Shown: positions 20,275 through 41,465 of the stretch, piece by piece
Layout: every line of letters begins with the position of its first letter
Numbering within the stretch: position 1 is the stretch's first letter
Assembly (NCBI RefSeq): GCF_006345805.1
Contig: NW_021835089.1
Span: 1 to 50,638 of the forward strand
DNA length: 50,638 nucleotides
Direction of reading: 5' to 3'
DNA from: Octopus sinensis
Lineage: Eukaryota
Notes under the pieces: model-generated
Seen by the model: only the letters and a program-made list of their open reading frames with translations
Database searches by the model: none
Told to the model about the DNA's origin: nothing
Translations under genes and position numbers: made by a program

Positions 20275-20508
20275 TCAGCTAACACTGCAGAATTCCTGAA
20301 GTAGATCCAACGGAAATATACCCTGACAAAGTATGACATCACATCAGGTGGCTCAAACTGTGCCAGTGCTCTACTCAACAGTTCAACACACTCATCGACA
20401 TATATCCATTAGTTCAAAATCTCAAATATATATATTATATATTATATATATATATATAATACATATACATATACATTATACATATACACATATATATATA
20501 TATAATAA

Positions 20509-21302
20509 CAATAATAACAAAGGGTAAAATTAATTAATTAAGAAGTAATCAATAATTTCACCAAGTAGAATTCGGCATGAAAAAGGACCATTTCACGGTA
20601 AACTTAAGTAATACTTTATAATTAGGGTTCAGCAAAGATTTGCTTTACCACATACCGAAGTTTAGAAATAGCAGCCAAAAAACCTTCGCTATTTCTTCTA
20701 CTTTGAAAACCAAAATACTTGAAAACAATCCACGCAGGCAGAGAGGGAAAATAACGAAAATCAATCTATATCTGGTCACCCATGTACGCGCGTTTCGGAA
20801 TTAGATCGGTATAAAGAATATAGAATTATACTTTACCCACCCATTTTCTCCATCGGCATGGGACTCCAACAATATTAAATATTAAAAATATTAAATTCGA
20901 AGGTACTGGAAGGATTGAACATATCTCTCCACCTAACGATATCAGACAGATCATATTCAGTGTTAATACCGCCGAATTCAAAATACGAATGAGGTTCATC
21001 ACCTTCCCCTGCCCATCCGCGTGTGTGATCAAGTAAAATACTACAGAAAAATCTATAGTTTGTTATCAGGGAGAAAATTATGTTATCAATAATAACAAAG
21101 GGTAAAATTAATTAATTAAAAAGTAATCAATAATTTCACCAAGTAGAATGCGGCATGAAAAAGGACCATTTCACGGTAAACTTAAGTAATACTTTATAAT
21201 TACTTTTTGAAGTAGAAGAAATAGCTAAGGTTTTTTGGCTGCTATTTCTAAACTTCGGTATGTGGTAAAGCAAATCTTTGCTGAACCCTAATTATAAAGT
21301 AT
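20509..21302 (-). mobile_element. Penelope-like pLTR element with direct and inverted terminal repeats, flanked by (TA)n
   Basis: 20509-20624 is directly repeated at 21087-21202; 20611-20703 is inverted at 21210-21302; eroded hammerhead at 20775-20864. Confidence 0.8.
20775..20864 (-). ncRNA. Eroded type-I hammerhead ribozyme
   Basis: Minus: cccatg-CCGATGG-(long helix II)-GAAA-CGCGCG-TA-catggg; helix I cccatg/catggg, palindromic helix III ACGCGCGT, GUA triplet; core deviates at two positions. Confidence 0.6.
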
Positions 21303-21330
21303 ATATATATATATAGATAGATAGATAGAT

Positions 21331-22370
21331 GAGTTCCTTTATTGGCCACACAGCAGGGCTGCACACAGATGGGACAAGTTACAAGGTAGAGCTTTTCTTT
21401 TGGGGGAGAAAACAAAAGGTGGCGTAGGTTTTCGATCAAAAGGGATCGTAAAAGGGAAAAAAGAACAGAAAAAAAGAAGAAGAAAGGGAAAAGGAACAAA
21501 AGAAAAGAAAAATGAAAAAAGAAGAAAAAAGAGGGAAAAAGAGGAAGAGGAAACAACCGATCAATAGGGATCGTGTATCACAGTGTCATGATGTATGGTG
21601 TAAAGGGGAAAGCAAGTAAGGATTATCCGTGGGAAGAAAAGCCTACGAAAAAGACCACGGTAACCTTGGTCAATATTGTTATATGTTACCACATTTGTTT
21701 GCAAGTGGGTAACCCTCTGTTTTCAATTTCTGGGTTCATAGGATTATGCTCAAAGTGGCTTTGTCATTCATACGTGCCATTCTTGCTACATTCACCCATC
21801 TTTTTTAAAACGTTCGCTAGACAAAACTTGCCTCTCTACTCTCACTTTCCTTTTCAAGTGGTACTTGAAGAAGTTGATGAGAGGTTGACCAGAGAGGAAA
21901 GTGTTTGTCTCTAATCCTTTCAGACGCGTCCACCAGATACATTCTTTCACCATAGCCACAAGGATGATGAAAATAGCCCTTCCTTCCCGTTTGAAAGAAG
22001 GAGGCGTGACAATATTGACGATAGACTCAGCTGATAAACCGACTCGTCCCACACGTGACAGCAGTTGTTCGACATAAGCCCACAGTTCGGAAATTGTTGG
22101 ACACTGCACGAGTGCGTGCAGAACGGTTTCGTCGCTCAGACCGCATCTCGGGCAGGTCGGCCCCGTGTTTCTCGAGCCGTGTCTGTAGAGCTTATCCCGA
22201 ACGGGTAGCGCTTCTCAGTAGCACCGCCAGGCCAGGGATCTCTGGAAGTTGTCCATGGGCCCTGGCCCGAAAGTCGTCCCGAACAGGCGGGTCAGGTATT
22301 CTTCGTCGACGTCCAGGTTCGCCCCGAGCTCGTCGTCGTACCTCCCCTCCACTAATCCCCTATAGAATGC
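21331..22370 (-). mobile_element. Tx1/L1-clade LINE, 5'-truncated (copy 2), (GATA)n on both sides
   Basis: Highly similar to 15831-16921; 1-bp deletion in the T-run near 21801 frameshifts the C-terminus (FKKDG*). Confidence 0.93.
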
Positions 22371-23009
22371 TAGATAGATAGATAGATAGATAGATATACG
22401 ATGGATGGATGGATAGATAGATATGCATTTGTATATGCATGTATGTATTGCGACCTCAATTTCACGGTACTATTATCATTAGAACTCTTGTTCCTATAAT
22501 TTGGGCTTTTTAATACGTGTTGAAATGTGCTCGTTCTTTGAATGGGTGTCCATTTCATCCGCCTGTTTCTAAAAGTTGTTTATTAAGTTATTCTCTATAA
22601 ATATCTTCGTAACATTTGATAAATCGTTTGCCGCTTTAGTTTCATTAGTCATCGACAGTATAATTCCCAGATTGTCAACAAGCAAATAATGCATGTGTTT
22701 TGTATTTATATGGGGATATCACTTTCCATTGACGATCTCTCTATTTGCTTTGGCTCTATTAGTCGCTTTACTAATTGCAAAGTGTGTTGTTTTATTTTAA
22801 ACCATACCCTGTTAGCGGGTTGTTAGCGAGCTTCGTTCTATCTGCATACCGTAATATCTCAGTCGTATACTTGTATATTGTTTAGGCTAAATTTAGTGGC
22901 TCGTAACAAAACACTTCCTTAACACTAATCAACAAATATTTATGAAACAATGTGTTTCATATTCTTGTAAGTGTATACATACATAAATACACAAACACAA
23001 ACGCATACG

Positions 23010-23200
23010 CTTTACTCTTTACTCTTTTACTTGTTTCAGTTATTTGACTGCGGCCATGCTGGATCACCGCTTTTAATCGAGCAAATCGACCCCCAGGTCT
23101 TTGTAAGCCTAGTACTTATTCTGTCGGTCTCTTTTGCCGAACCGCTAGTTACGGGGACGGAAACACACTAGCATCAGTTGTCAAGTGATTTGGGGGGGGG
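23010..23200 (-). mobile_element. SINE family C 3' half
   Basis: tttacttgtttcagttatttgactgcggccatgctgg..ttgtaagcctagtacttattctgtcggtctcttttgccgaaccgcta. Confidence 0.85.
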
Positions 23201-23429
23201 GGCAAATACACAATACATATTCATATATATGTATGTATGTATGTATATATGTATGTAAGTATATATATATGTGTATGTATGTAAGTATATATTATGTATA
23301 TATGTATGTATTTATATATATATATGTATTATATGTATTTATATATATATATTTATTTATATATATATATATATATATAATATATATATATATATATCTA
23401 TATATATATATATATATAGATAGATAGAT

Positions 23430-23479
<50 letters not shown>

Positions 23480-23837
23480 GCGTGAGTGTGTGTGTGTGTG
23501 TGTGTATAACAACTCATAAACCGACGGGTGACATGTTGTCCCACATTTCATTTATATGTCTCCGGAATATTCCACGTGATCACTGCAGATTAATACCAAT
23601 TAATTACGCAACGAACAACAGAAGACATCCTGCATTCGTGATGTCACGTCTGAGACTCTACGATAAATTCATTTCAAAAATTAGATCCTTAAATCTACGG
23701 TTGACTAACATGTTTTTTTCAATATTCAACCGAAATTCAAAAGCATATGCATATGTGTGTGTGTGTGTATGTGTGTGTGTATGTGTTTGTGTGTACATTT
23801 ACATGAATATACACACATACACATATAAATATGCATA

Positions 23838-23873
<36 letters not shown>

Positions 23874-24125
23874 CTGGGCGAATATGTAATCCATTGTAAT
23901 CCTTCTCTACAAACATCGTTTTAGCGTCCAATTAATGTACATCATAATTGATACTATCTGTAACTCCTTGTTTATATTAGTTGTATTTGTATATAATGCA
24001 TACGTATATGAATTTAATTTTCTGGAATTCATATCTATTTTAGGAAAATGGTATAAAGAATGGTACAAAAAAATGTTTATGCTTTTCGTTCATGTATTAT
24101 TATTTTTATCCTTTTATCTTTACAG

Positions 24126-24140
24126 TGCTTGTCGTTGTCG
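24126..24140 (+). CDS. Candidate 15-nt symmetric microexon
   Basis: Long polypyrimidine acceptor tttttatccttttatctttacag, then TGCTTGTCGTTGTCG, then a perfect GTAAGT donor; no stop in any phase. Confidence 0.45.
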
Positions 24141-25261
24141 GTAAGTTTCGTAATTCTTTGAAATCTGAAGAAAATTCTAGGAGAATGTTGCAGAAGAAAT
24201 GTCATGGCCATGTTTTCGTCAATTACTTAAACCTTCATAAAAGCAACGCAAAAATTACAAGTAAATCTACCTGCATTTACCCGTCAAATTACGTCAGCTT
24301 CCCAATGTCTGTCCTAAATTTCCCTACATCCATCCTAGCTTCCTAATCTAGGTCGGGCCAATCCCTTTGGTAAAGCGTCAGAAGTTTAGAGGGTTTGGTT
24401 TGGGTGTTCGGGGTGGTTCAGAAATGATGGGATCAGACAAGTCTTACTGGGTGGCCCCCTCCTTCTACAGCCCAACACGTATTTAAACAAATCTATAGGG
24501 GATTAATGCTTGATGTTTGATGCAAGATGTGAAAAGGAATAAATACATTACGATGCCACAAACACATGGTGCCTATAAGTAAAGACAAAGACACACACAG
24601 TCTCGCACAAATGTATATACTTGCATACATATATATGTATGTGTGTGTGTGTGTGTGTATAAATATATACATATATATATGAATATATGTATATTATATA
24701 CATATACGTATATATATATGTATGTATATTTATATATATATATACATATGTATACATACATACATATATCCGTGTGTATATAAACAAACATATATATACA
24801 TATATGTATATATGTATGTATATATAAAATCATATAGATATATACATATATATGAATTTGTATTTATGTCTTTATATGAATTCGTATGTTTATGCCCATA
24901 TATAGTCTTATAAGTTTGTTTAGATATATGTACTTATACGTATGTTGTTAAATATATCATTGACACAAAGATTTTTACATGTATGTATATATATATATAT
25001 ATATAGTTATATATCTATATTTATAATTATACATATTAATGTATATATATATGTGTGTGTGCGTGTGGTATGTGTATAAATTACACATATGTACATATAT
25101 GTATAAGTACACTAAATATACACCTACATAATTTCAAATACAGACGCAAACATGCGCATAGGTTTATGTCTATGAGTGTGGGTGTGTGGGCGGGTGTTCG
25201 TGTGTATGTGTGCATGTGCGTGCTTAAACGCATATAATCCCTGTATGTATTTAATATGCCC

Positions 25262-25612
25262 AGAGGCGCTGCCCAACCAGATGGTTCCTAGTTCATTGGT
25301 ACTTTGAGCTCGCACTTTTTATTATAGCCTGAAACCTTGTGATTTCACTTGTTAAACAGAAAGAAATCCGTCATATATACTTATAACTTTCTTTTTTCTA
25401 TCGTTTACTTGTTTCAGTCATTAGCCTGCGGCCAAACTTGGAATCGCCCAATGAAGAGTTTTTAGTCGAATGAACCAACATTTTATAGAACTTGTATTTT
25501 CAAAGCCTAGTATATAATCTATCGATATTTTTCGTCCAATTCCTAAGTTACGGGAACATAAAGATGCCATCACCTGCCATCAAGGGATGACGGGGGCAAA
25601 CACACAGACCCA
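25262..25612. mobile_element. SINE family C remnant with 5' half on + (25262-25375) and 3' half on - (25395-25612)
   Basis: Head aaccagatggttcctagttca..gaaagaaatccgtcata is in + orientation; tail tttacttgtttcagtcattagcctgcggcc..taagttacggga is in - orientation. Confidence 0.6.
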
Positions 25613-25704
25613 AACATCTACACACACACACGTAATATTATATATAATGTAATTGTGGTGTATGTAAATATGTATAGGTATATATATATATAATATATAT
25701 ATAT

Positions 25705-25780
25705 ATAATCAAAATAAGCAACAAGGATATCCAAGGGTAGAGTAGTACAATTGTTTCATGCTACTTCATTATATTAAACA
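25705..25780. mobile_element. Terminal fragment of the Penelope-like family seen at 38923-39187
   Basis: tataatcaaaataagcaacaaggatatccaagggtagagtagtacaattgtttcatgctacttcatt matches the 38923 arm; embedded in (TA)n. Confidence 0.8.
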
Positions 25781-26025
25781 CATACATATATATATGTATG
25801 TGCGTATATGTATATATATGTATAAATACATACATATATATATAATATATACATATATATATATGTATGTATGTATATATATATAATTTAGAGAAAAACA
25901 TCAATTAAACAATTCAATAATGAAAGATGTTATTCACACCATTTAGAAAACGTATGCTATAAAAGCCTTATTCTAAAACTCAATAAGTTTTGGAATTATA
26001 TTTCTTATTATCATTATTATTATTA

Positions 26026-26094
<69 letters not shown>

Positions 26095-26610
26095 CATCAT
26101 CATCATCATCATTACTATTATATAAATAGATAGACAGATAGATAGATATACAAATATATGTATATATGTATAAAACAGTATTTATATCTATGAATATGCA
26201 TAGAAACATAGATATGCGCATCCGAAATAAGTTGCCTTCAGTAAACGTGAATATACAAAATCGCTTGCAAACACACAAGAAACAACAGTACATAAGTAAA
26301 AATAGATACAGAGCCAGTGCAAAGTACCAAATCAGCATCTAGTGACATAAGAGAGAAGGTCAGTCATAATATATTTATGTAAACATGGTGAGTCAATAAA
26401 TCATTTTGAAACAATTATATCGATGTTTTCAGCTCAAATTCTTGGTTACTTCATCAAGTGCTTTTTACGATGAAGTACGCCTTGTGATTGTAGTGTGTGT
26501 ATATGTGTGTGTATTTGTGTGCCTAAGTCCGTATATACATACACACCACATACACACACATTCGCACACACACATATATATATATATATATAATTATATA
26601 CTTTATTTGT

Positions 26611-26668
26611 TTAACAAAAACTGTCCGACGAACGGGAACGTGAAACTCCGAGTAACAGGTTTTGTTGA
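26611..26668 (+). ncRNA. Type-I hammerhead ribozyme (U4C core variant) in a ~140-bp (TA)n-flanked element
   Basis: aacaaaaactgt-CCGACGA-ACG ggaa CGT-GAAA-CTC c GAG-TA-acaggttttgtt: 12-bp helix I with one mismatch, 3-bp helix II, near-palindromic helix III; predicted cleavage after GUA at 26654. Confidence 0.8.
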
Positions 26669-26754
26669 AATTCTGCTACCCCTGGTATTTGAGTACTCCT
26701 TTTTCCACCTTGTTTCACAATTATGTGTTTACTCCGGTATATAATTATATATAC

Positions 26755-27189
26755 ATATAAAAACAGATGAGTGGTACAGAAGGCACCAATATTTACTGGA
26801 AAATAGCAATTGATACAAATACGACGCTATTGTAAAGCTTCACTGTGTATATACTGACAAAGACGTGTGTGTGCAACAAACATTAAAAATTTGTCTTACC
26901 TCTAGGAAGAACATTCGCTAAATGAACAACCTAGAATCGGATAATGCAGGACCGGTTTCTAACTCTTCAAATAAGTTTGACAACGTAAATTTGATCAGTC
27001 TTCATCAACTGCATTTACCTAGACAATATTTCAAATGTTGCCACATCAATGCCAGTATACTCGCCTGAAGTTAACAGAACGAGAACAGTGAAAAAGTTTT
27101 CAATGAAAAATAATATTACAATACAAATGTATTACTTTCCTTTAAAGTATAGCCCCATAAGGGTAGCAGTATAGATATAAAAACAGATG
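26755..27189 (-). mobile_element. Penelope-like pLTR/retrozyme-like unit (~420 bp) bounded by a 15-bp direct repeat
   Basis: atataaaaacagatg at 26755-26769 and 27175-27189; contains the hammerhead 26943-27015; no ORF. Confidence 0.65.
26943..27015 (-). ncRNA. Type-I hammerhead ribozyme (C3U core variant)
   Basis: Minus: aatgcag-TTGATGA-(gact..tcaaat/atttga..agtt helix II)-GAAA-CCGG-TC-ctgcatt; 7-bp helix I, palindromic helix III ACCGGT, GUC triplet, cleavage after 26950. Confidence 0.8.
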
Positions 27190-27564
27190 TGTGTTTGTAT
27201 ATATGTATATATAGGTGAGTGGATAAAAGAAGGCAAGGGTACCCGACACATTTATTGTGTTACATCAATTACTCAAAATAATCTAATTCAGTTTCCGTGC
27301 TACTTCAAGTTTCGAAGCTCCTAACGGGACCTTTCTTGTGAGGCTGGTAAGAATTCAAACTATAATTAACTCAGTTGACAGGCATGGTATTATGCACTTT
27401 TTTTCTTTTTCTGAGAGAAAACTCGCTTCATAGATGTGTTGTGCTTATACAGGAATGGAATTTTCCCAAAGGAAATGTTCATATTTGGTTATAGAACGAG
27501 GAAAGTCAGTATTCCAAACCAAAAATCTGTGCATCAACGCTCTCTCTATCTCCCCCATTCGACA

Positions 27565-28385
27565 CAATCCATAGACATCAAAAACCGCGAAATCCTGACA
27601 TCAACTGGGAACTTCAATAGAAACAGTGATGTTGACAGGCTCTACCTAAGAAGAAATGAAGGTGGTAGAGGCCTGAGATCAGTGCAGACAGCCTTAGGAT
27701 GTCGTATGGTAACACTCAGAGAGCACCTGCTAAACAACAGCAGCAAAGATAAATATATTAATGAGGTCCTGAAAAGTGAAGTGAGCAACATTGTACGAGT
27801 TGGTAGTGAACTCCTCAAGAAACTCTCTCTTCCTCATGATCTATACAGCCCCAAAACAGCTGGGCTCTCTGACATCAGAGAATACCTGGATGGAAAGCAC
27901 TCAGCATACAAAAAAGACCATGCATGGGTAAGTTGCCCGGAAGCTTGAATTGACACGAAGCCCAGCCGCACATGGACACAAGACCACTACATCACATCGC
28001 ACTTTGAAGGCTATGCGTTAACAACCCAGGAACAGGAGATTGCCACAAAGTACCCGGTGAACAAGAGAGAGACAGTGACGCTCTTGTAATCCCAAGGTGC
28101 AACCGCATGTGTAGGTTATGTCATGTTACTGTGGGAGACATTACACAAGTGATTAGCAGGCTGTCCTAAAAGGTACTATCTTCCTATGCGGCACGATGTT
28201 GTTGTTAACACAATTTACAATGCTATCCGCAAAAAAGACTGTCCTGAAATTAACTTAGAAAATCCCTCTGTTATGGAAACATTCATAAACACCAACTCAA
28301 GGAATACTGGTGGACTATCCCCATCAAAACGTCTGTCAAAGGTAAGCATAACTGACCGGATATTGTTGTTTGGGACAGAGGAGTA
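27565..28385 (+). mobile_element. R4/Dong-clade (RLE-type) LINE fragment, frameshifted
   Basis: IDIKNREILTSTGNFNRNSDVDRLYLRRNEGGRGL, QEQEIATKY, CRLC, YLPMRHDVV and a PDIVVWD-like endonuclease motif. Confidence 0.88.
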
Positions 28386-28392
28386 AATGTAT

Positions 28393-28490
28393 ATAAGTCC
28401 TGGGGTTGATTATTTCGACTAAAGTCGACGCTACAGCATGGCCGCAGTCAAACCACTGAAACAAGTAAAAGAATAAATGAATAAAAGAAT
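28393..28490 (+). mobile_element. SINE family C 3' tail
   Basis: ataagtcctggggttgatt..cagcatggccgcagtcaaaccactgaaacaagtaaaagaataa. Confidence 0.82.
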
Positions 28491-28555
28491 ATTATATATT
28501 CACACACACACACACCACACACACACATATATATATATTATATATATATATATAT

Positions 28556-28587
<32 letters not shown>

Positions 28588-29498
28588 ACATATAAAAATA
28601 TATAAATGTATCACATACACAACAGTCACATGAACATTCTTAAATACAACACACACACACACATAGGACCAAACAACTAGAAAAACAATATAATCACTAC
28701 CAGCCTCACCGCCACGAAGAAAAACAACAGCAACAACACGAGCAACAACAATATAATCCGTTTGTCTTCAAAACCCAGCACCACCACCACCACCAACGCC
28801 ACCACTATCAACCACATCCCTGCCAACATCATTCGGTTCATATCTACAAATTCTTCTTCGCCCGCACCCTCCACCACCACCACCACCACCACCCTTTTAA
28901 TTCTTCTTCTTTAACATCTCCATGCCATTCTCTATACTTACATTATAAATCTACAGCAAGGAATTAAAAACTTGGCTAGAGGTAGGGAAAAGAAAGAATT
29001 GCTTTGTATTGTATTGTATTGAATTGTATTGCCATCAGAAGAGAACGCATGAGGCTAGCTTGCATTGGCTTTGGAAAAGGCCTGTACTCCAAATATATAT
29101 ATATATTATATCTATTATATATTATATATATATATATATCTATATATATATATGGATGGATGTATGGATGTAAATATATGTATATATACAAACATATACA
29201 TATATGAAAATAATATATATATATATATATATATATGGGAAAAACACTTAAGCAAACCTTCGTTTGCTAATCCTTTGCTGTTTGTTTCTTATGAAAATGT
29301 GCGGAGAAATAAACCTCATCTATATTCTCTCATGCTTAAACAACCCGCTTGCCAGTATATATGAATTTTATTTATCTACATGTACGTAACCAATTGTTTG
29401 AGAGCATACACATATGTGTGGTGTATGTATGGATGTAACGTGTAGATAAATGAACAACTTGCGAGTGAGAACAATATATGTGTGTGTCTATGTATATA

Positions 29499-29550
<52 letters not shown>

Positions 29551-29766
29551 TATAGTGAAAGGAAGCATAAAGTGATAGACTGAGATGTATGGAGAGTGGT
29601 GAGACGTTTATTTTCTCCATATGAGTATGTCCGTATGTATTTATGCAAGCGTGTATGTAAAAATTTGTATATATTTAGTCGCTTGTTGGCTGGTTTCTTA
29701 GTAAATGAGGAGTGAGCAGAACAAGGCACGATATATACCTGCATTTCTTCATATGTGTACATTGTA

Positions 29767-29927
29767 CAATTATATATATATATGTAAATACACATTTGCC
29801 AGAACGTGTACCTATCTATGAGTCCTATCTTCTTCTTTTCTGTGATTTCCACGTGTATGCGTGTATATGCATATATGTACATATAAATATCTATGTATAA
29901 TATATATATATCACTTATTATAAATAC

Positions 29928-29978
<51 letters not shown>

Positions 29979-30254
29979 GTATGTATGTATGTATATATGT
30001 ATGTATGTATGTATGTATGTGGATATATGCATGTACATATATGTTCGTATGCATACGCACCTAGACAAAAATATGTACATATATACATGTGTGTGTATAC
30101 AGACACACACGTTCTTTGTATGTGTCTGTGGCTGTGTCTACTAGTGTGTATGTGTGTGTGTGTAGGTGTATGTGTGTACGTGTGTATGTGTCTGTGTGAG
30201 TGCATGTGTGTGCGCGTGCATGTTGAGTGCGACTATGTACATAAATGCAAAGGT
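29767..30254 (+). repeat. Donor segment of an inverted duplication (partner 33012-33516)
   Basis: Unique anchors gagtgcgactatgtacataaatgcaaaggt, gcatacgcacctagacaaa and cagaacgtgtacctatctatg recur reverse-complemented at 33012-33516. Confidence 0.92.
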
Positions 30255-30576
30255 AGATAGATAGATATACGAATATGTTTGCACTCATACACAAACACAC
30301 ACACAAATACACACAAACGCACAATCGCAATCGCATAATCCATATACTTGCATAAAGGCCGTTTGTAACAGTCAACTACCTTTTGGAATTCTTAACAATT
30401 ATATTCTTTGAAATTCCAAATATCTTTCATCTTCATTGTAAAGTTTTCAGTTGTTAAAAAAACATTGCTGGTTCACTTTTAAATTTCAGTACAATGTGTA
30501 CGATATATATATATACACATATCCATACACAGACACGCATATCGCATATATATATGTATGTGTGTATATATGTATG

Positions 30577-30646
<70 letters not shown>

Positions 30647-30666
30647 TATAGATAGATAGATAGATT

Positions 30667-30708
<42 letters not shown>

Positions 30709-30779
30709 GAGAGAGAGAGATAGGTAGCTAGATAGATAAATAGATGCGTACATACAAAAATACATACATATATGTATAT

Positions 30780-30820
<41 letters not shown>

Positions 30821-30836
30821 TGTATATACATATATG

Positions 30837-30887
<51 letters not shown>

Positions 30888-31341
30888 GGAGAGAGAGATA
30901 CACATGCATATGTGCATATATGTGGTATACATACGAATGGCAGAATCTATACAATATACATGATTTTGTATTGAAAACATATGTATAAATATTTCGCTAT
31001 CTCTGTTTTTATCCTGACTTCTTCAAGTTTTGTACTATACAACTATTTGTTATGGTTTTATTGTTGCATTCTTGTTGTTAGTGTCGTTGATTATACTAAT
31101 CTTGCTTTTTCTTGTTGCTGTTCTTATTGTTGTGCTAATCATGTTTTTTTTCTTCTTTTTCTCGTTTCTTTTCCTTCTTTGATTTCTTACTGTATTTTTG
31201 ATTTTGTTCCGTGTCTCCCTATTGATATATAATAATACCCTCTATTGATCCTGTTTCTGTGCACGCTTCGTGCTAAGCAGTTTTTCGGCATGTACATCCA
31301 TGAGTAGATATATATGTATGTGTATGTATATATATATGATA

Positions 31342-31393
<52 letters not shown>

Positions 31394-31588
31394 ATATAAT
31401 ATATATATATATATATGTATTATGTGTGTGTGTGTATGTGTGTATATATATACATATATATATATCGATATAGATATTTGTTGTTCTTTTTGTGTTGTGG
31501 TAGTTATTGCTGGTGTTGTAGTTTTTGTTGTTGCTACTGTTGGCATTGCGGTTGATGTTGCTATATTTGTCGTGTGTGCTGTAGTTGT

Positions 31589-31663
31589 TTCTTCTTCTTC
31601 TTCTTCTTCTTCTTCTTCTTCTTCTTCTTCTTCTTCTTCTTCTTCTTCTTCTTCTTCTTCTTC
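31589..31663. repeat. Perfect (TTC)25 trinucleotide repeat
   Basis: Direct inspection. Confidence 0.97.
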
Positions 31664-32035
31664 TCCTCCCTCTCATTCTCCTTCTTCTTCTTCTTTTTCT
31701 GCTTTTTCATCATGTCTTTCTCTTTACCTTTGAACTTTTCAGCTGTCCTGAAAAAGGAAATTGATAACTGAGATCAGATCGGAAACTTGTATCTTCCATT
31801 GCTAAGAGATTAATAATAGCAAAAATGGTTTAAAAAGCTACTTTCCACTGATGAATTCTCATGTCGTGTTCGGTCCCACTACGTGGCACCTTGAATTGGT
31901 TTATTCAACCATATACAAAGAATAAAATTCAGTGGGGAAAGCATGTCTGTTATCCTGTCGTGCGCCTGTATTTCAAAGAGCCGGCCTTGTCATACAGTGT
32001 GGCGAGTTAAGTTTATCTCAAGATTTTTTTTTAAC

Positions 32036-32286
32036 AAATGCGCCCTTTTAAAGCCTAGCCAGGCTCATGGGCCCGGTTTCCTGGTTTCTATGGCGTATGT
32101 GTTCCCCCCAGCTGGACGGGACGCCAGTCCATCGCAGCGTTACTCATTGTTTCCAGCTGAGTGAACTGGAGCAACGTGAAATGAAGTGTTTTGCTCAAAA
32201 ATACAACGCGTCGCCCGGTCCAGGAATCGAAACCACAATCATACGATCATGATGCTGACACCCTAACCACTACGCCACGCGCCTCT
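32036..32286 (-). mobile_element. tRNA-derived SINE family A
   Basis: Minus head AGAGGCGCGTGGCGTAGTGGTTAGGG..GGTTTCGATTCC; homologous to 1228-1520. Confidence 0.9.
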
Positions 32287-32999
32287 ACTTATCTCAAGAT
32301 TATATCAACGATATTCGTGAATGCAGAACATTCAGTAACTCACTCTAATATTCAATGAATAAATAAATCCATTGATCGAACATCTGAAATAATGATCACC
32401 AAAGTCGATACGAGATCGATTTATGTTGCCTTAAATAGGAATCTCCGGCAGAATATCACTCATTGGGCATAAAATCAGTATTTTACGGAGAAAGTTCAAA
32501 CGGCGGTATATCTATGTTTCTTTATATTTTGGGCTTCATTTTCTGGATCGATAAAATAACATGATGTAATACATAATGATCGATTAAATAGATTACATGT
32601 AATCTTTATGAAGGTTTGGCCTCGTGTCAATCCAACGAATCAATAATATTTTTTTCTTAAGAATGGCACTGGAGAATGGAATACAATGATGTATAAGATT
32701 TGAATTTCTACAATGCAAGTTCAAACTTAACTCAGTTTGACTTTGCCTCTTATTATTTTCTTTCCTCCCTTCAGCATAAGGTGCTTGTAGCCCTTTTGGT
32801 GGCTTTCTCGGCAACTCCGATTTTCCTGGTAAAATACCAAGATGTTTTCCGATCAGCTTACTTCACCATGTAAGGTATACACAGTTCTGAGGTAATGTAA
32901 GAGAGATAAAGATTAAATAACTCCGGACGAGAAAAAGTTTTGATACGAATAAAATGGAAAACTAAGTTCAACTAATTCAAATGAAAATAACTTGTAGAG

Positions 33000-33209
33000 C
33001 AGGGTTTCTCAACCTTTGCATTTATGTACATAGTCGCACTCAATATGCACGCGCTCACACATGCACTCACACAGACACATACAAAGAACGCGTGTGTCTG
33101 TATGCACACACATGTATATATGTAAATATCTTTGTCTAGGTGCGTATGCATACGAACATATATGTACATGCATATATCCATATGCATACATATGTATATG
33201 TACATATAC

Positions 33210-33240
<31 letters not shown>

Positions 33241-33348
33241 ATATATATATTATATGTATGTATATAAAATATGTGTATATATATATATATATTATATATA
33301 ATATATATATGTAGTATTTATAAATATATGTATTTATATATATATATA

Positions 33349-33414
<66 letters not shown>

Positions 33415-33820
33415 TATATGCATATACACGCATACACGTGGAAATCGCAGAAAAGAAGATAGGACACATAGATAGGTACACGTTCTGACAAATGTGTATT
33501 TACTTATATATAATTGGCCCATTTGTTTACTGTTTCATTCTGGTGGATCCCCATGAAAAAACTTTTTTCAGGCGGACTCCCATAGAAACATTTTGAAAAT
33601 TTCAATTTTATTTTTCTCACGTTAACTTGTGCAGGTTTAACTATGTAAAATGTCAGAGAAAGAAACCTACCTGATTCTTGCATTACATATATCAAAAGCA
33701 AATTTTTTTCAGGGGCCCTTAAAATACTATTGTGGATCCCAAATGTATTTTGTTTCGTGGACCTCCAAGAAATATTACATGGACCCTTAGTGGTCATATG
33801 AACTCTGCGAATGATGGCTG
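33000..33820. mobile_element. hAT-type MITE interrupted by an inverted templated insertion (33012-33516)
   Basis: Starts CAGGGTTTCTCAACC (hAT/Charlie-like TIR); repeated ggatccc/ggacc subterminal motifs at 33540-33800; decayed right end. Confidence 0.6.
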
Positions 33821-33857
33821 TAGAGTTTCTACATTAGAATTATTTAGCCAAATTCTA

Positions 33858-33983
33858 TTAACAGTTTAAACATGAATCACTGGAAGAAATCATATCATCT
33901 TCCTTCACTTCACCCTTTTCTGCCCTCTTTTTCCCCGATTTTGTTTCTGACGACTTAGTCTGAGTTGTAGGTTCTTTTCTGGT
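33858..33983 (-). CDS. Candidate exon (low confidence)
   Basis: Acceptor tttccttccatttttag; phase-0 frame TRKEPTTQTKSSETKSGKKRAEKGEVKEDDMISSSDSCLNC*. Confidence 0.2.
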   Translation of the reverse strand, partial: TRKEPTTQTKSSETKSGKKRAEKGEVKEDDMISSSDSCLNC

Positions 33984-34615
33984 CTAAAAATGGAAGGAAA
34001 TTCTTCAGCTTAAATATTACAATAACTTACTCTACACCAGTCTCTAAACCAGTCTCTAACATTGCATTATCATAAACACACACACATACATACACACATA
34101 CACACATACATACACACAACATACACACATATATACATGCATACATGCATACATACATATATACACACATGTATATGTGTATATAAAAGAATTTTAGTAC
34201 GAGAAGGAACGAACGGATTTTATTACAAATCACAACGATTGTTTCCCTACATCAGTACCAGATTGTAGTTGCAGAATATTATATATATATATATATTATG
34301 TACATTATTGCATTAATATTATCCAACACTAGCTGGATACATGCACTCTTCCTTGAGCAGAACCCAAACCACTGCTAAATCATCTTTGGTTTCTCTTTTC
34401 ACCATCATGTTATTTTTAGCATTCCATTGACAAAGAACTACAGGGGAATACAGAGAGTTAGAAAGGAGAGAGATAATATACATATTGTTCGAATAATACC
34501 AATGCAAAGCTGTTTTAACAAACGAGCGTTTATTGTCGGTCTGACTCAATAATATTGGAGGCATCAAATTTGCCGTGAAGGAACAAGTGTACATGATATT
34601 CACAGTATATATATA

Positions 34616-34655
<40 letters not shown>

Positions 34656-34685
34656 TATTATAATATACATATATATATATATATA

Positions 34686-34905
34686 ATTCTTGCCATTATC
34701 GCGGTTCAACTATCGTGGTTCTCCACGGTCTAGTATTTAAGCCTACGTCCATGGTGTTATTTTACATATATAATAAAAAATAAATATATACAAGTTATAA
34801 AAATAATGAAGAAAAATATACAGTACAGTACTGTTTCTACTTCGCAGACTAACACATATTGCGGGGCGTTTGGGAACGCTTCACCCGCGATAGTCGAGGA
34901 ATCTG

Positions 34906-34906
<1 letters not shown>
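34686..34906. mobile_element. Tigger/pogo-like MITE remnant in (TA)n
   Basis: Ends attcttgccattatcgcggttcaactatcg ... acccgcgatagtcgaggaat are imperfect inverted repeats; internal tacagtacagta. Confidence 0.55.
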
Positions 34907-34952
<46 letters not shown>

Positions 34953-35221
34953 TATACGCATACACATATACATATGCGCATGCGCGTATGCTCACAGACA
35001 CACACAGATGCACACATACACACGTATATGTTAATAGATAAGTCTACGTACATATATGTCATACAAACCTTAACTTCGATGTCACTTTCAAATTTTTCGC
35101 TATATATACCTCTCTGTCTATCTATCTACTATATGTATACATACATATATATATATATACTTATATATATATATACTATATATAGTTATATATACATATA
35201 TATAATCTATATATAAATATA

Positions 35222-35256
<35 letters not shown>

Positions 35257-35263
35257 CATGTAT

Positions 35264-35317
<54 letters not shown>

Positions 35318-35334
35318 TATATATACATATTAAT

Positions 35335-35391
<57 letters not shown>

Positions 35392-36169
35392 CATATCCAT
35401 ATATATGAACATACATATAGTATATATTCGCACGCACACACATATGCATCCAGAAACCTACACACATATATACACTGCTACGTACTTAATCGGAGCTTTT
35501 GAACAGCTTTAATGCTACGTTGAAACAGAGAATAGGAAAGTGGTTGAAAAATGACAAACACAAAAATATGAAAAATAAATATGAATAAAAGTTTGTTTGT
35601 TTTTTTTTAAATTGAAAAGAAGACAAAACTGAATAAATTCTGGGTGAACTCAACGGCATATATAATGCTTTCATTATGAAATAGATAGAAAACAGTTTCA
35701 GGTAGGCTGTGTAAACTTCGTTGTATTCCTTTCACAAACCGGATTAGTTCTACATAACAAATATATAGAGAGATAAAACAAATTTTATAAATAAAATATT
35801 TATGCATACAGTTATATAAGCACACACGCACACACAAACACATACCCACACATACGTACGTATATGTATGTGCATATAAATAAATATATAGAGAGAGATG
35901 TGTGTGTGTGTAAGTTAATGGAAAAATTTAATAAATTTAACATCACTTTGAAAGCAACAATACGAACAATGATGACGAATGTGACTGCGTCTGTTACTTT
36001 TTAGAATGTACAATTTATGCATCGTTTGCCTGGTCAAATGTCCATTCGTCATGACGACCACGACGTCACGACTGTAAAAACCATCCCATCACTAGCAGCT
36101 TGTATAACCCGGATGAAGACAACAAAAAAAGCCATATTCGCCAACTTCAATGACAACAACAATTATTCT

Positions 36170-36735
36170 GCTATAGGCACAAGGCCAGAAATTTGTGTGG
36201 AGGGGACTAGTCGATTACATCGATGCCAGTGCTTGACTGGTATTAATTTTAGTGACCCCTAAATGATGAGAGGCAAATTCGAACTCAGAACGTAGCGACG
36301 AGTGAAATACCGCTATGCATTTCGCCCAACGCCCTAAAGATTCTACCAGCTCGCCGCTTTAACAACAACAATAATGATTCTCTCCATTATAGACACAAGG
36401 GCTGACATAACTGGTACTATTTTATCGACCCGTAAATGATGAAAGGCAAAGTCGACCTCTGTGGAATTTGAACTCAGAACGTAGGGTGAAATACCTATTT
36501 CTATTTCTTTATTACCCACAAGGGGATAAACACAGAGAGGACAAATAAGGACAGACAAACGGATTAAGTTGATTATATCGACGCCAGTGCGTAACTGGTA
36601 CTTATTTAATCGACCCCGAAAGGATGAAAGGCAAAGTCCACCTCGGCGGAATTTGAACTCTGAACGTAGCGGCAGACGAAATACTACTAAGCATTTCATC
36701 CGGCGTGCTAACGATTCTGCCAGCTCGCCGGCTTA
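36170..36735 (-). mobile_element. Tandem cluster of about three SINE-B copies
   Basis: Repeated tcgacc..gatgaaaggcaaagtc..gaatttgaactcagaacgta..ccagctcgccg units separated by (AAC)n. Confidence 0.88.
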
Positions 36736-37373
36736 ACATCAACAATAATAATAATAGCGATGGACTAAGATAGCTTCTACGGTGACAATTGTTCTTTTAT
36801 AAAAGGGCAAATAACAGATTTATTGAATCGTTATCTACAAAGTTCTATGAATGCTATACGGTGCTCATTTGCCACTCCATCTTATTCTTTTCTTGTCTTT
36901 TTTTTTAAAGGTGATACAAGAAATTATTAAAACTATAATTAACACTAACACACACACACACACACACACACACAAGCACACACGCACACACATGCACGCA
37001 CATACACACACAAATTCCATACGAACACATATACAGAAGCAACGATTACGAAGGAGCAAAGATATGTTTGATATGATACCAAGTAATATTGTATTATTCA
37101 TTATCCGGAGATGGGCCACCGAGTGAACATACCAGTGGCCGCGTCGAATACGTAGAAATAGCAGCCAAATCTCCTTGAAGTTCCATTGTGCAGTGTCTTG
37201 GTAAAAAAAAAAATAGAGGCAGAAAATGGTGGATGAGTGAGGTCCATGACATATTGGATTAGAAAATGAAAAGAATATCTTGTTTTGTAAAGCAAAGAAA
37301 CGAATGTAACCATTGGAGATTCTGTGTATCATAGCGTAGGTCTTTTGGATCAGAGATGGACTTTGATTAAGCG

Positions 37374-38060
37374 ACGAGGAGGAGGAGGAGATTAAGAAAA
37401 TAAAAAAATGTAGCAGAGGAGAATGAGGAATAAGTGACTGAAGAGAAGATTATGGAGCAGGTGAAGGAAGAGGAGGAGGGGGAGGAGAAGAAGAAGTGGA
37501 AGAAGAAGAAGTGGAAGAAGAAGAAGAAGAAGAAGAAGAAGAAGGGAAAAAGAAAAAGAAAGTGGCGGAAGGGGGAGGAAGGGAGGAGGGAAGGAAGAGG
37601 AGGAAGGGGAGGAGGAAGAGGAGGGGGAAGAGGAGGGGGAAGAGGAGGAGGAAGAGGAGGAGGAAGAGGAGGAGGAAGAGGAGGAGGGAGGGAGGGAGGA
37701 GGAAGGGGAGGAGGAAGAGGAGGGGATGAATCGAAGGAGGAATAGGAGGAGGAATAGGAGGGGAGGAGGAGGAAGAGGAGTGGAGGAAGGGGAAAAGAGG
37801 AGGAGGAGGAGGAAGAGGGAAAAAGTAGCGAAGTAGTAAGAGATGGAGGAGGAGGAGAATATAGAGGCGTATTTCACTGAGGAATAGAGAACGGAGGAGG
37901 AAGAGGAATTTTAGGATGAGGAAAAGAAGACAGAGAAAGAGGTATCGTGGAGGCAGAAGGTGAGGGTGAGGAGAAGGTGGAGAAAGGAGAAGAGAAAATG
38001 ATGTAAAAGAAGAAAAGAAGGAAGATAAGAAAAACAAAAAGAAAAACGAGAGGTTGGAGG
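37374..38060 (+). repeat. ~690-bp polypurine (GAA/GGA) low-complexity tract
   Basis: Nearly pure A/G on the + strand, with a 12-bp GGAGGAGGAAGA periodicity at 37600-37725. Confidence 0.95.
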
Positions 38061-38156
38061 TGGATTAGAAGAAAATCAGGAGAAAAATAACAAGGAAAGA
38101 AGTTTAAGAGTTGTTCTGGAAAGCGTTTTCCTGCCACTAATATTAATGTTGAATGG

Positions 38157-38295
38157 AAGGCGGCGATCTGGCAGAATCGTTAAAACACCGGGTAAAATAC
38201 TAGCCGCTATTTCGGCTATCGCTACGTTCTGAGTTCAAATTCTGTCAAGGTCGACTTTGCCTTTTATCCTATTGGGGTCGATTAAATGAGTATCA
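38157..38295 (+). mobile_element. SINE family B
   Basis: aaggcggcgatctggcagaatcgtt..ctacgttctgagttcaaattctgtcaaggtcgactttgcctttt. Confidence 0.85.
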
Positions 38296-38729
38296 TTTAC
38301 GAAAGATTTGAGGATTTGGTTTGATAATGGTTTGGACAGTGTCTACTTTTCTAAGCCTGGGTCTAGTCTGATAAAATACTTATGTACACTTTTCTCCGAT
38401 TTAAGACCATTTGTTCTTTGTGATGTTGCCTCATATGGCCGCAATCCAGTATCTGAAAAAAAGTAAGAAATAAAGCGTACAAAAGATTACAGACAAACAC
38501 CACCACACACATAAATGATGAATAACTGTTACTTCGAAGTATCCGTCCTTCAGCATTTGTCGGAAGGATAACAGGCCGAACCCTGGTACTCACTCTCAGC
38601 CGTCTTCTTGTAAAATTTTGAAATGACAAAATCTCATTGAGTAATTCTTTTATTTAATGTTAAATTATTTTCATATCTTTGCATAAAACCATTATTAATA
38701 CATATTTATACATAGATGTGCATGCACAC

Positions 38730-38811
<82 letters not shown>

Positions 38812-38922
38812 CTCATGGTGCCATATGAACATTTAACGTGGTTTTATAGTCAGAGTTTCGACTGCTATTTCGGCATGTTGGTGTCTTTTAGACACCCTCA
38901 TTTTTAATTATATATATATATA

Positions 38923-39285
38923 TATAATCAAAATAAGCAAGATGGATGTCCAAGGTAGAATAGTACAATTGTTTCATGCTACTTCATTTTATTAAACACT
39001 GTAAGTATTACATCAGTTTTAAAATATCGAGCAATCTTATCCTTAAGAATGTGTATTGTCCGTTTAATTGAAAAATTCTATATGTGGCTGAAGATTGTTC
39101 GATACTTACAGTGTTTAATAAAATGAAGTAGCATGAAACAATTGTACTACTCTACCTTGGACATCCTTGTTGCTTATTTTGATTATAATCACCCCATTTG
39201 ATTTATATGGATAATACCAGACAAACTCTGGTGCCTTTAACTTAAGTACCATATTCATCTGAATCTAAATTTTGCTGAACTTATA
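38923..39285. mobile_element. Penelope-like element with ~86-bp inverted arms (38923-39008 / 39102-39187)
   Basis: Arms nearly identical in inverted orientation; flanked by (TA)n; same terminus at 25705-25780. Confidence 0.75.
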
Positions 39286-39289
39286 TATG

Positions 39290-39345
<56 letters not shown>

Positions 39346-40121
39346 CTTCCATCCATTCATCCACCCATGCATGCATACATACATACATACATATATATAG
39401 ATACATATATTTATATGTATGTACATACATAGACATACACTTACCCAGGTACACACCAATCGACACACTGATGCGCACACGCACACACATAAGTTCAGAT
39501 TACGGGTGTAAGCGATCAATCAACAATTAATCAAATAAATGAACGCCATACAACAGATTCAGCAAAATATTGTTGGTATGTAACCAAGTATGATTTGGGA
39601 TGTAGCCTAAAGGTCAAAAGTAGCTGGTGATAAATTGTGTCGGTAGTAAATAGTTAATAGAATTGTTAAAATGAATTGAATTGACGTGTTGACAGACTAA
39701 AAGTGAGGCCCACGCTCGAAACAGGAGTCTGACTTCAAAAAATGATATATGGGTTTCAAGCCTGTGAATGAATTCGCGGAATTTCGAAAGAAAGTAGGTG
39801 AAACTTAACATATCCGACCATGCGTGAAATAGAAAGAATATCAACAGTCTCGGGGTTGATTAATAAGGAAAGATGGAAGCCTAACGAAAGTGCAACCATT
39901 CTCTGTAGCAATAAGTGCAGCATGCTCCAACATTTGAGATTGGAAAGGGTGACATTTTTGAGGGGGCTACTAGAAATAGCTGTCAAATCTTCAGTTCACA
40001 CTGTCACTAATGGAGAGGTTCACCCAACATAACATACATACATACATACATATATACAAATATACGTACGTATGTACATACATACATACATACATACATA
40101 CATACATACATAATACATACA

Positions 40122-40154
<33 letters not shown>

Positions 40155-40284
40155 GCATACATAATACATACATGAGCATGTCTAGATATCCAACTATATG
40201 CATGAGGATACATACATAAAAGATACGAATCTGTACATACATACATACACTCATACATACATACGTACATACATACATATATAC

Positions 40285-40482
40285 ATAATTAATCCAAACA
40301 TGAACAAAGAGAAAACACAACAACGCGAGGACGCAGAACAAGTATTGGACGTACAGGAAAGGAAAGAAAGAAGAAGCATTTAACGCTTCGAGCGAAGCTC
40401 TTCGTCAGAAATATAGAAAAAAGGAAAAGTCCAAGGAAGGGAAGACGGTGATAGAAAATCGCCAACGATACACACGCGGTCA
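40285..40482 (-). mobile_element. Penelope-like pLTR fragment in a (TACA)n tract
   Basis: Pyrimidine-rich minus strand containing a minimal hammerhead; microsatellite on both flanks. Confidence 0.7.
40377..40413 (-). ncRNA. Minimal type-I hammerhead ribozyme (GAAA to GAAG change)
   Basis: Minus: tattt-CTGACGA-a-GAGC ttc GCTC-GAAG-CG-TT-aaatg; PLE-style minimal fold with loopless palindromic helix III (A/G)CGT. Confidence 0.75.
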
Positions 40483-40656
40483 TGCATGCCTACATACATA
40501 CAACATACATACATACATACATACATACATAGAAAAATACCCTGCTGCTGATGTTGTAATTCCAATGAAGGAGCCTTGGATCTAGGTTAGAAATCGGTTC
40601 TTTCACTATTGGCAAGAAATCTTGAAATAAACTGAATAATGACGTACATACATATA

Positions 40657-40905
40657 TGCAGAAGAGAAATAGTATAGAGTTGTAGAAATCATTTGCAGAG
40701 CAGATGTTAACGGAAAGCTAATGATCGGTGAAAAAGAGAATGCTTACGCTGAAATACTGAGAAATCTAGTTATTCTATCCATATTAGTTTACAGGTTTAT
40801 ACCTGCATTTATTGAGGTACTGGGATATGTAAGATACTGCCTAATTAGCAGTATTGTGAAATTAGGCTTCTTTCGGCCATAGATATAAAAAGATTTGATA
40901 AAACT
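40657..40905 (+). mobile_element. R4/Dong-clade LINE 3' fragment
   Basis: VVEIICRADVN..EKENAYAEILRNL..YRFIPAFIEVLGYVRYCL; homologous to the minus-strand end at 45300-45500. Confidence 0.75.
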
Positions 40906-40977
40906 AATATATATATATTATTACGGAGATGTACTCGTATAGCAAGTAATTTGATCTGAGATCGTGTACTGGAACGA

Positions 40978-41183
40978 AAGCAATTGCAGCGTGGAAGGTG
41001 TTTGTAAGCCATTTAAGAAACACACAAAAGCGTTCCATTCACTTCAACATTTAAGTTTAATTTCTCAAAATATTTTCGTCACTAAAATATTTTGACAAAT
41101 TAAACTTAAATGTTGAAGTGAATCGAACGGTTTTTGTGTGTTTCTTAAATGGCTTACAAACACCTTCCACGATGCAATTGTTT
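40978..41183. repeat. ~100-bp-arm near-perfect palindrome with 7-nt spacer (likely inverted pLTR fragment)
   Basis: Arm 40978-41076 and arm 41084-41183 are reverse complements with few mismatches; spacer cgtcact. Confidence 0.92.
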
Positions 41184-41465
41184 ATATATATTTATTTTAT
41201 TTATTTATTTTATTTTATTTATATTAAAATTTTATGTATTGATTAAGTCTTTCCTTGTTTGGTTTTAAAATAGTGGTTTTGTCTCGAATTATATTATATA
41301 ATATTTTACTATAAAATTGAATTTAACCCTAAATCTGATTTTTCCCTGTAATTTTGGATTCATTCCCTAATATTTATATATATATATATATACTTTTTAC
41401 ACGCGCACACACACACACACCACACACACACATATATATATATATTATATATATATATATATATA

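Follow-up and report, generated by a model that had tools for sequence, protein, structure and literature searches.

Hammerhead ribozyme islands in a contig of Octopus sinensis: probable ends and protein-less derivatives of Penelope-like retroelements adjoining (TA)n tracts

The window analysed here is a whole contig of 50.6 kb (50,638 nucleotides) from Octopus sinensis, whose 2.72-Gb genome was searched for relatives; it has a GC content of about 30-40% and is dense in microsatellites (127 Tandem Repeats Finder rows). A preliminary description, made from the sequence alone, had reported four hammerhead ribozyme folds with palindromic helix III in short islands. Using a type-I hammerhead descriptor that specifies the core, the first two helices and a palindromic helix III, we found all four: three with one core mismatch each, at 26625-26654 (+), 26950-27008 (-) and 40382-40408 (-), and the fourth, at 20785-20856 (-), with two. 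The palindromic helix III is present in every case. We propose with high confidence, from copies elsewhere in the genome, that all four islands are ends of Penelope-like elements (PLEs) or their derivatives adjoining (TA)n, those of families F1 and F3 coming from truncated coding PLEs and those of F2 and F4 being units without a protein. The islands and their hammerheads are listed below (ORF, open reading frame; pLTR, pseudo-long terminal repeat).

20505-21302, minus strand: F4, ORF-less unit containing the 20.8-kb fold
20779-20862, minus strand: F4 hammerhead; helix I of 6 bp, private core changes U4C and A9G, 8-nt palindromic helix III
26601-26737, plus strand: F1, assigned as the 3' end of a 5'-truncated Hydra-type PLE, containing the 26.6-kb fold
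26613-26666, plus strand: F1 hammerhead; helix I of 11/12 bp, 3-bp helix II with a GNRA loop, 9-nt palindromic helix III
26755-27190, minus strand: F2, ORF-less 431-bp unit containing the 26.9-kb fold
26943-27015, minus strand: F2 hammerhead; helix I of 7 bp, long helix II, 6-nt palindromic helix III
40288-40482, minus strand: F3, assigned as the 3' end (pLTR) of a 5'-truncated Neptune-type PLE, containing the 40.4-kb fold
40377-40413, minus strand: F3 minimal hammerhead; helix I of 5 bp, canonical C3-A9, a bulged A, 4-bp helix II

Cleavage is predicted after positions 20785 (F4), 26654 (F1), 26950 (F2) and 40382 (F3). None of the four folds has a perfect core, each deviating at one or two positions. 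In F1 the deviation, U4C, is typical of the subfamily (42/46 rows) and has been described as a naturally occurring change with reduced activity in vitro (PMC3088659). The change C3U in F2 is private to the window copy (C in 24/25 family rows), as is A15.1G in F3, whose helix III has 4 nt (A in 31/34 rows). U4 and A9 are each canonical in 26 of 28 F4 family rows, which validates the eroded 20.8-kb fold. Family majorities for C3-A9, G12-A15.1 and U16.1-H17 are canonical in F2, F3 and F4. The window copies of these three families, with their private core changes, are probably dead. The hammerheads of all four families are predicted to cut only as dimers, and the self-duplex energies of helix III are -7.8 (F1), -8.3 (F2) and -13.3 kcal/mol (F4).

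A separate, strict descriptor gave two matches in the window, at 26625 and at a fifth fold at 39088; among 40 block shuffles of the window, 35 had no match and five had one. In 395 kb of fetched loci (identified below by L numbers), element-enriched through their selection, it gave 87 matches, against 0, 2 and 1 in shuffles. When two mismatches are allowed the window yields 12 matches, so the eroded 20.8-kb fold is not above chance by itself. The strongest structural support comes from comparison between families: in about 1.2 Mb of fetched loci, 263 descriptor matches were grouped into 26 clusters whose helices are unrelated, while the core and the palindromic helix III are common to all. The 3-8 pair varies among clusters, being C-G, U-A, A-U (one place) or G-C (six rows at three places). 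The preliminary description expected core and helices to be conserved with covariation. The canonical family majorities agree with this, as does helix I across F4 and two related families, F4b and F4c (18/18 pairs kept, 4/6 positions changed); covariation of helices within families is negligible.

First-look searches of the genome gave 2125 candidates for F1, 1638 for F2, 2820 for F3 and 906 for F4, of which 40 were scored per family; these figures are not copy numbers. The F1 copy in the window consists of a pLTR and tail from which 23 nt are missing internally, and on its 5' side stand a few bases of a short end in inverted orientation. F1 copies have more than 1 kb of common upstream sequence with variable 5' ends, and the longer ones are colinear, the 3' untranslated region (UTR) being preceded, upstream of the hammerhead end, by a GIY-YIG endonuclease (EN) and reverse transcriptase (RT) frame. 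In L198, L203 and L223 a U4C hammerhead is linked to an EN or RT-EN frame, and the hammerhead half of the window copy is 97% identical to that of L198 and 91% to that of L223. A search with the F1-linked frame returned 19,445 candidates, with many frames longer than 700 aa. Three loci (L257, L260, L261) are complete copies of a sister subfamily, comprising a pLTR with canonical core, an ORF of 721-727 aa, a 1-kb UTR, a second pLTR and (TA)n; across the ORF this subfamily is 88% identical to L223 at the DNA level. An inverted piece precedes the 5' pLTR in L260 and L261, and L257 is without one. The hammerhead-to-hammerhead distance in L260 is 3348 bp.

The parent has a single ORF with RWK and DKT motifs, a CxCX5C-type linker, no CCHH, and terminal CxxC and CxH; the linker is intact in L203, L223 and L227, and its second cysteine is changed in L237, L247 and L260. 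F1 copies extend beyond the predicted cut by either 37 or 108 nt, and among inverted pairs 18 join a short and a long end, none joins like ends and 12 are unclassified. From this linkage we take F1 to be the 3' end of a 5'-truncated protein-coding PLE of Hydra type, the clade being assigned by motifs and by comparison of reference proteins by eye. An EN upstream of an F1 copy in L012 was rejected as part of the parent; it belongs to another PLE.

Several F3 copies likewise have common upstream sequence. Four loci (L151, L186, L187, L188) run colinearly from a GIY-YIG EN with CX4CXXC linker and CCHH, through a CA-rich UTR, into an F3 island 72-88% identical to the window copy and then a microsatellite flank; L186 also has RT motifs. 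A search with the F3-linked EN gave 11,739 candidates, and among 30 loci fetched nine are followed, at most 1.5 kb further on and on the same strand, by an F3 island, eight of these being in the top 12; two of the nine are places already among the island-derived copies. No junction of a 5' pLTR with the ORF was recovered among the fetched copies. F3 is judged on these grounds to be the 3' end of a 5'-truncated protein-coding Neptune-type PLE, a clade assignment made by motifs only. A further Neptune-type family (L142-L144) has uninterrupted frames of 775-781 aa and a long upstream frame in another phase. Together with the intact-frame Hydra-type family of L257, L260 and L261, it is a candidate for an active driver.

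The organization of F2 and F4 is different, in that each unit has its own 3' end lying upstream of it. The F2 copy in the window comprises one full turn and a few bases (1.0 unit) and has a short-type 3' end in (TA)n. The F4 copy holds 1.2 units head to tail with a period of 578 (unit about 590 bp): 21084-21202 repeats 20506-20624 directly, 21204-21302 is an inverted 5' piece, and the long 3' end at 20505 and the short-type end at 21302 both lie in (TA)n. GC in these bins is 0.30-0.31. Exact 22- and 25-nt patterns located 122 F2 and 25 F4 sites, with none for reversed controls, and the first 30 F2 and all 25 F4 sites were examined. All can be mapped to the unit in direct or inverted orientation, their 3' ends fall into two classes, and none (0/30 and 0/25) runs into an RT-EN ORF of its own. 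Linkage to RT plus GIY-YIG frames, which the preliminary description had proposed to look for, is thus found for F1 and F3 and not for these F2 and F4 copies. A period of 428-439 bp was seen in 18 of 25 F2 loci and of 564-602 bp in 17 of 25 F4 loci, two pairs of the latter being duplicates. Two or more consecutive units occur in rare F2 and F4 loci (L318, L096) and in F4b.

PLE-protein matches beside three of the 30 F2 and one of the 25 F4 copies were dismissed as unrelated neighbours (three were read; that in L276 is on the other strand). L317, where two F2 units 4982 bp apart enclose RT-EN remnants, was rejected as an autonomous F2, since both units end in (TA)n and the decayed, unrelated remnant has its own hammerhead end; it holds two separate F2 insertions. 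Four presumed-RNA contig sets cover F1 and F2, and two of them show head-to-tail F2 joints, which are uninformative on circle versus genomic tandem and provide no ends. On their unit structure F2 and F4 are best described as non-autonomous PLE derivatives or non-LTR (long terminal repeat) retrozymes, likely copied in trans by a PLE protein. Diverged relatives of F2 (L182:2534-2905, 69%) and F4 (L197:1998, 73%), with helices altered and mostly paired, indicate that the unit lineages are old.

The association with (TA)n, which the preliminary description had noted together with the PLE-type hammerheads and the unrelatedness of the families, holds across family members. TATATA stands at the 3' junction in 27/29 F1, 24/30 F2, 23/25 F4 and 20/30 F3 copies, against 10.5% of random flank positions, and most of the remaining F3 3' ends start with related alternating tracts. 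At the 5' junction it was found in 14/30 F2 and 14/25 F4 copies.

The most informative relative is F4b, a young sister family with 77% identity to the window F4 over 191 nt and 63% over 390 nt. Its unit is 603 bp, full-length matches are 95-98% identical, and tandem arrays occur on many contigs (e.g. G000:C6:41174265-41181787, covered by L321 and L254, with further arrays in L352-L371). Of 21 arrays fetched, 20 were obtained whole and comprise 2.9-11.3 units, lengths biased upwards because the arrays were picked from multi-unit top matches; (TA)n lies on both sides in 20/20. The arrays are purely unit-repeating, the longest frame being 53 aa. The hammerhead has a canonical core with G10.1-C11.1 and a GUC site, and the core is intact in 108 of 109 units. 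Sixteen arrays are two-armed, with arms that point outward and are joined at variable points, and in 15 of them a short arm end is paired with a long one, near +186 and +281-296 nt past the predicted cut (P = 2.6e-4 at 0.5).

Among 98 full F4b units, 17 minority variants were array-wide, two partial and 156 confined to a single unit, a class that includes assembly errors. Ten of the 17 array-wide variants are private to one array and seven are shared between arrays; of the 137 alleles seen in a single unit, 14 are found again in a different array. Units of the same arm are no more alike than units of opposite arms (3.8 versus 2.8 substitutions), and neighbouring units differ slightly less than units that do not adjoin (3.3 versus 4.1). 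The sequence across the predicted cut is identical at 121 of 126 junctions, the others having single-base differences. Beyond weak AT-rich matches, no link of F4b to any fetched PLE end was found.

Since variants are array-wide or single-unit and almost never partial, and since the ends are paired, each array was likely made in a single event of PLE-type reverse transcription from one monomer, most simply a circular one. F4b is our best candidate for a live retrozyme. That it is still mobile, and that its arrays are rolling-circle footprints of one circular ribozyme RNA, with a PLE protein dimer priming on both (TA)n strands and making one arm per internal start site, we put forward tentatively, at slightly less than an even chance. 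If true, F4b would tie retrozyme circles to the PLE machinery through an integration signature and would account at once for the inverted ends and the tails of PLEs.

The features to be accounted for, as read from the DNA, are the ORF linkage of F1 and F3, the unit structure of F2 and F4, a pair of fixed 3' ends in each family (as measured for F1 and F4b), variable 5' ends, inverted 5' arms and (TA)n beside the 3' end. The PLE protein studied by Frangieh et al. 2024 nicks AT-rich DNA, extends both strands and uses two internal RNA start sites that define the tail; it is predicted to be a dimer (PMC11167929). Following that work, an RT-GIY-YIG protein would nick AT-rich DNA here and begin reverse transcription at one of two internal sites. 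We suggest that it may prime on both target strands, one arm per start site, which would make the insertions inverted, with a short end on one arm and a long end on the other, and that early stopping of the RT could leave islands of 140-200 bp. For F2 and F4, after Cervera and de la Pena 2020 (PMC7229834), tandem transcripts would pair through the palindromic helix III and self-cleave to monomers, a host ligase would close these, and the PLE RT would copy round the circle to produce arrays. Minimal PLE hammerheads are weak and need dimers (PMC4209133), and retrozyme monomers have been circularised by RtcB in vitro, with copying by a PLE RT proposed (PMC7229834). We consider the whole explanation, classification and mechanism together, probable; the circular-template step for the arrays is evenly balanced.

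Several results weigh against this interpretation. The folding z-scores of the five window folds are unremarkable (-0.17 to -1.46), for most of them the minimum-energy fold is not the hammerhead, and the 4-nt helix III duplex of F3 is weak (-1.7 kcal/mol). Among 150 listed of 357 Rfam matches in the window there is no hammerhead family, only microsatellite-driven microRNA models. Pfam and PDB did not recognise the 727-aa F1-type ORF, whose identity rests on its motifs, on a weak BLASTP match (E 1e-7) to a Pfam-confirmed RT-GIY-YIG frame of the same genome, and on Atlas neighbours carrying HTH_animal, GIY-YIG and RVT_1 on parts of members. Among the fetched loci no intact-ORF copy of the U4C subfamily of F1, no intact copy of the F3 subfamily and no autonomous driver for F2, F4 or F4b was seen. 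The hammerhead of an Anolis PLE is assisted by the protein, and insertion in vitro proceeds without it (PMC11167929), and eight of nine Xenopus retrozyme dimers did not cleave (bioRxiv 10.64898/2026.07.22.740005). The selection of long F4b arrays, the assembly errors and the recurring alleles belong here as well.

Other explanations have to be weighed. The unremarkable energies, and the chance matches that loose descriptors yield, would fit folds arisen by accident in AT-rich repeats, an idea that is hardly credible and is refuted at the family level by the canonical majorities, by the architecture kept in 26 clusters despite different helices and with paired changes at 3-8, and by the agreement of the F1 helix I/III motif with published Hydra hammerheads. 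The preliminary description took all four islands for ORF-less, non-autonomous mini-elements. The window copies are indeed short, ORF-less and TA-flanked, and no PLE frame is among the ORFs of the window, which has just LINE-like (long interspersed nuclear element) fragments. That description stands for F2 and F4; it is refuted for F1 and F3, which extend into PLE frames in many other copies, so that as an account of all four it is very improbable. F2 and the old F4 could also be mere partial pLTR tandems belonging to an autonomous PLE, the copies with an ORF having escaped sampling, as PLEs do form partial tandems and 30 of 122 exact-pattern F2 sites were examined. We think this quite unlikely: a 3' end of its own upstream of each unit at a fixed period leaves no room for an ORF, the sole apparent pLTR-ORF-pLTR case is the pair of insertions in L317, and F4b repeats nothing except its unit.

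For the arrays, the strongest competitor dispenses with the circle: uncleaved multimeric transcripts from a parent array, or an RT jumping repeatedly onto self-cleaved linear monomers, would serve as templates. In vitro the PLE hammerhead is not needed and uncleaved RNA is the main substrate (PMC11167929), and the seven shared array-wide variants and the recurring single-unit alleles are as this predicts. The ten private array-wide variants would then need a single-unit bottleneck followed by regrowth, and the uniform cut junctions are unlike the untidy joints that we would expect of template jumps; we regard linear templates as possible, though unlikely. Growth in place, in which tandem duplication or unequal crossover expands an insertion of one unit, recalls the satellite model raised for retrozyme arrays (bioRxiv 10.64898/2026.07.22.740005). 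It is compatible with the private variants and with the slightly greater likeness of adjacent units. It sits poorly with two partial against 156 single-unit variants, with opposite arms as alike as units of one arm, with inverted arms that can both be multi-unit, and with long arrays in young F4b when the old F4 copies examined have fewer than two units; we consider it improbable.

Further PLE-type ends lie in the window, and the density of roughly four islands per 20 kb given in the preliminary description is an undercount. They are as follows.

25704-25781, minus strand: F5 fragment flanked by (TA)n tracts, with the short end and the 3' half of the hammerhead
38923-39283, plus strand: F5, with the fifth hammerhead, canonical core at 39088 and 8-nt palindromic helix III
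40925-41182, minus strand: F6, inverted-repeat element whose long and short ends are of PLE type
41204-41304, plus strand: hammerhead-family fragment, 85-89% match to the 3' side of another family

The F5 copy on the plus strand has an inverted 5' piece (38923-39008) and (TA)n on each side, a Hydra-like architecture. The F6 copy is truncated inside the ribozyme and retains just the 3' half of the hammerhead; its relatives, at L012:2183 (-), L075:1295 (+), L241 and L026, have a G3-C8 core with a 7-bp helix I, a 5-bp helix II and a 6-nt palindromic helix III. PLE 3' ends in which the core has A3-U8 (one place) or U3-A8 were found at L129:2072 / L148:5387, L142:5663, L123 and L125. Judging from these sequences, every one of the four Watson-Crick pairs, G3-C8 and A3-U8 among them, appears to occur at 3-8 in natural hammerheads of this genome. 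Our literature search found no description of natural G3-C8 and A3-U8 cores, though one listed paper, PMC3884650, mentions G3-C8 once. Lunse et al. 2016 reportedly deals with PLE hammerhead variants and may already list the core variants noted here.

Elsewhere in the window, 33818-33894 (+) is a one-mismatch descriptor match without a match to any family, and may be chance. Two broken LINE-like RT fragments of one family, interrupted by microsatellites, lie at 16286-17590 and 21792-22469 (-), the former with a zf-RVT match. Frames at 27415-27948 (+), 45499-45753 and 46303-46587 (-) presumably resemble the RT ends of other non-LTR retrotransposons; the two of these that were scanned had no Pfam match.

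The element kinds described here are all known, and the novelty implied by calling them poorly catalogued was overstated, although these families appear new. Most genomic minimal hammerheads stand alone or inverted as remnants of truncated PLEs (PMC4209133), Hydra PLEs insert in (TA)n and carry the same hammerhead motif as F1 (PMC8557442), and retrozymes have been published as non-autonomous PLEs (bioRxiv 10.64898/2026.07.22.740005). Six nucleotide motifs searched in the supplement of PMC8557442 gave only a sea-cucumber match. Our literature search found no paper on two-armed retrozyme arrays with paired PLE ends. The window islands are ordinary PLE debris and retrozyme-like units, relevant mainly to repeat annotation. 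F4b matters more, with its near-identical arrays, intact ribozyme cores and PLE end signatures. It has been proposed that PLEs mobilise retrozymes by way of circular RNA (PMC7229834), a view backed by co-occurrence and pLTR phylogeny (bioRxiv 10.64898/2026.07.22.740005), and the presence of F4b arrays and two intact-frame PLE families in one genome makes it directly testable.

Compared with known systems, the families here resemble Poseidon_Ac in having two 3' ends per family, AT-rich targets and a hammerhead just upstream of the RT start sites (PMC11167929), and Penelope of D. virilis and A. vaga in having a tail on one of the inverted pLTRs (PMC3846280). Tails of about 70-105 nt differ from the 30-40 nt of those elements (PMC11167929, PMC3846280), in which the first ATG lies inside helix II; the first in-frame ATG of the F1 parent is 175 nt past the cut. 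The F1 parent is like Hydra-clade PLEs in ORF motifs, linker type and (TA)n insertion (PMC8557442). It shares the short helix I and ACTC-N-GAGT helix III with Hydra-2_Amil and Hydra-2_Ajap, coral and sea-cucumber hammerheads with this helix I/III motif being listed in the supplement of Craig et al. 2021, and in many of the listed Hydra hammerheads unpaired bases flank helix II, as in F1 (PMC8557442). It departs from the clade in a pLTR-to-pLTR length of 3.35 kb, against generally less than 3 kb, in one subfamily fixed for U4C and in the loss of the second linker cysteine in some intact copies (PMC8557442); by eye Hydra-1_Obim is another family, with a different hammerhead and protein. The F3 parent matches Neptune-clade PLEs in its RT, CX4CXXC linker and C-terminal GIY-YIG with CCHH, and differs in its long CA-rich 3' UTR and in that no intact subfamily copy was seen; its hammerhead has the bulged base before helix II and 4-nt palindrome of the minimal hammerhead of Cervera and de la Pena 2014.

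With respect to non-LTR retrozymes (PMC7229834; bioRxiv 10.64898/2026.07.22.740005), units of 431 bp (F2) and about 600 bp (F4, F4b) are longer than the typical 300 bp or so, and the window F2 and F4 have just 1.0-1.2 units. The F4b arrangement of inverted arms, with a PLE short end on one and a long end on the other, both in (TA)n, is absent from the passages of these two sources that were examined. F2, F4 and F4b are like retrozymes in being ORF-less, AT-rich units with one type-I hammerhead each, arranged head to tail, and F4b, like them, occurs as dispersed multimers.

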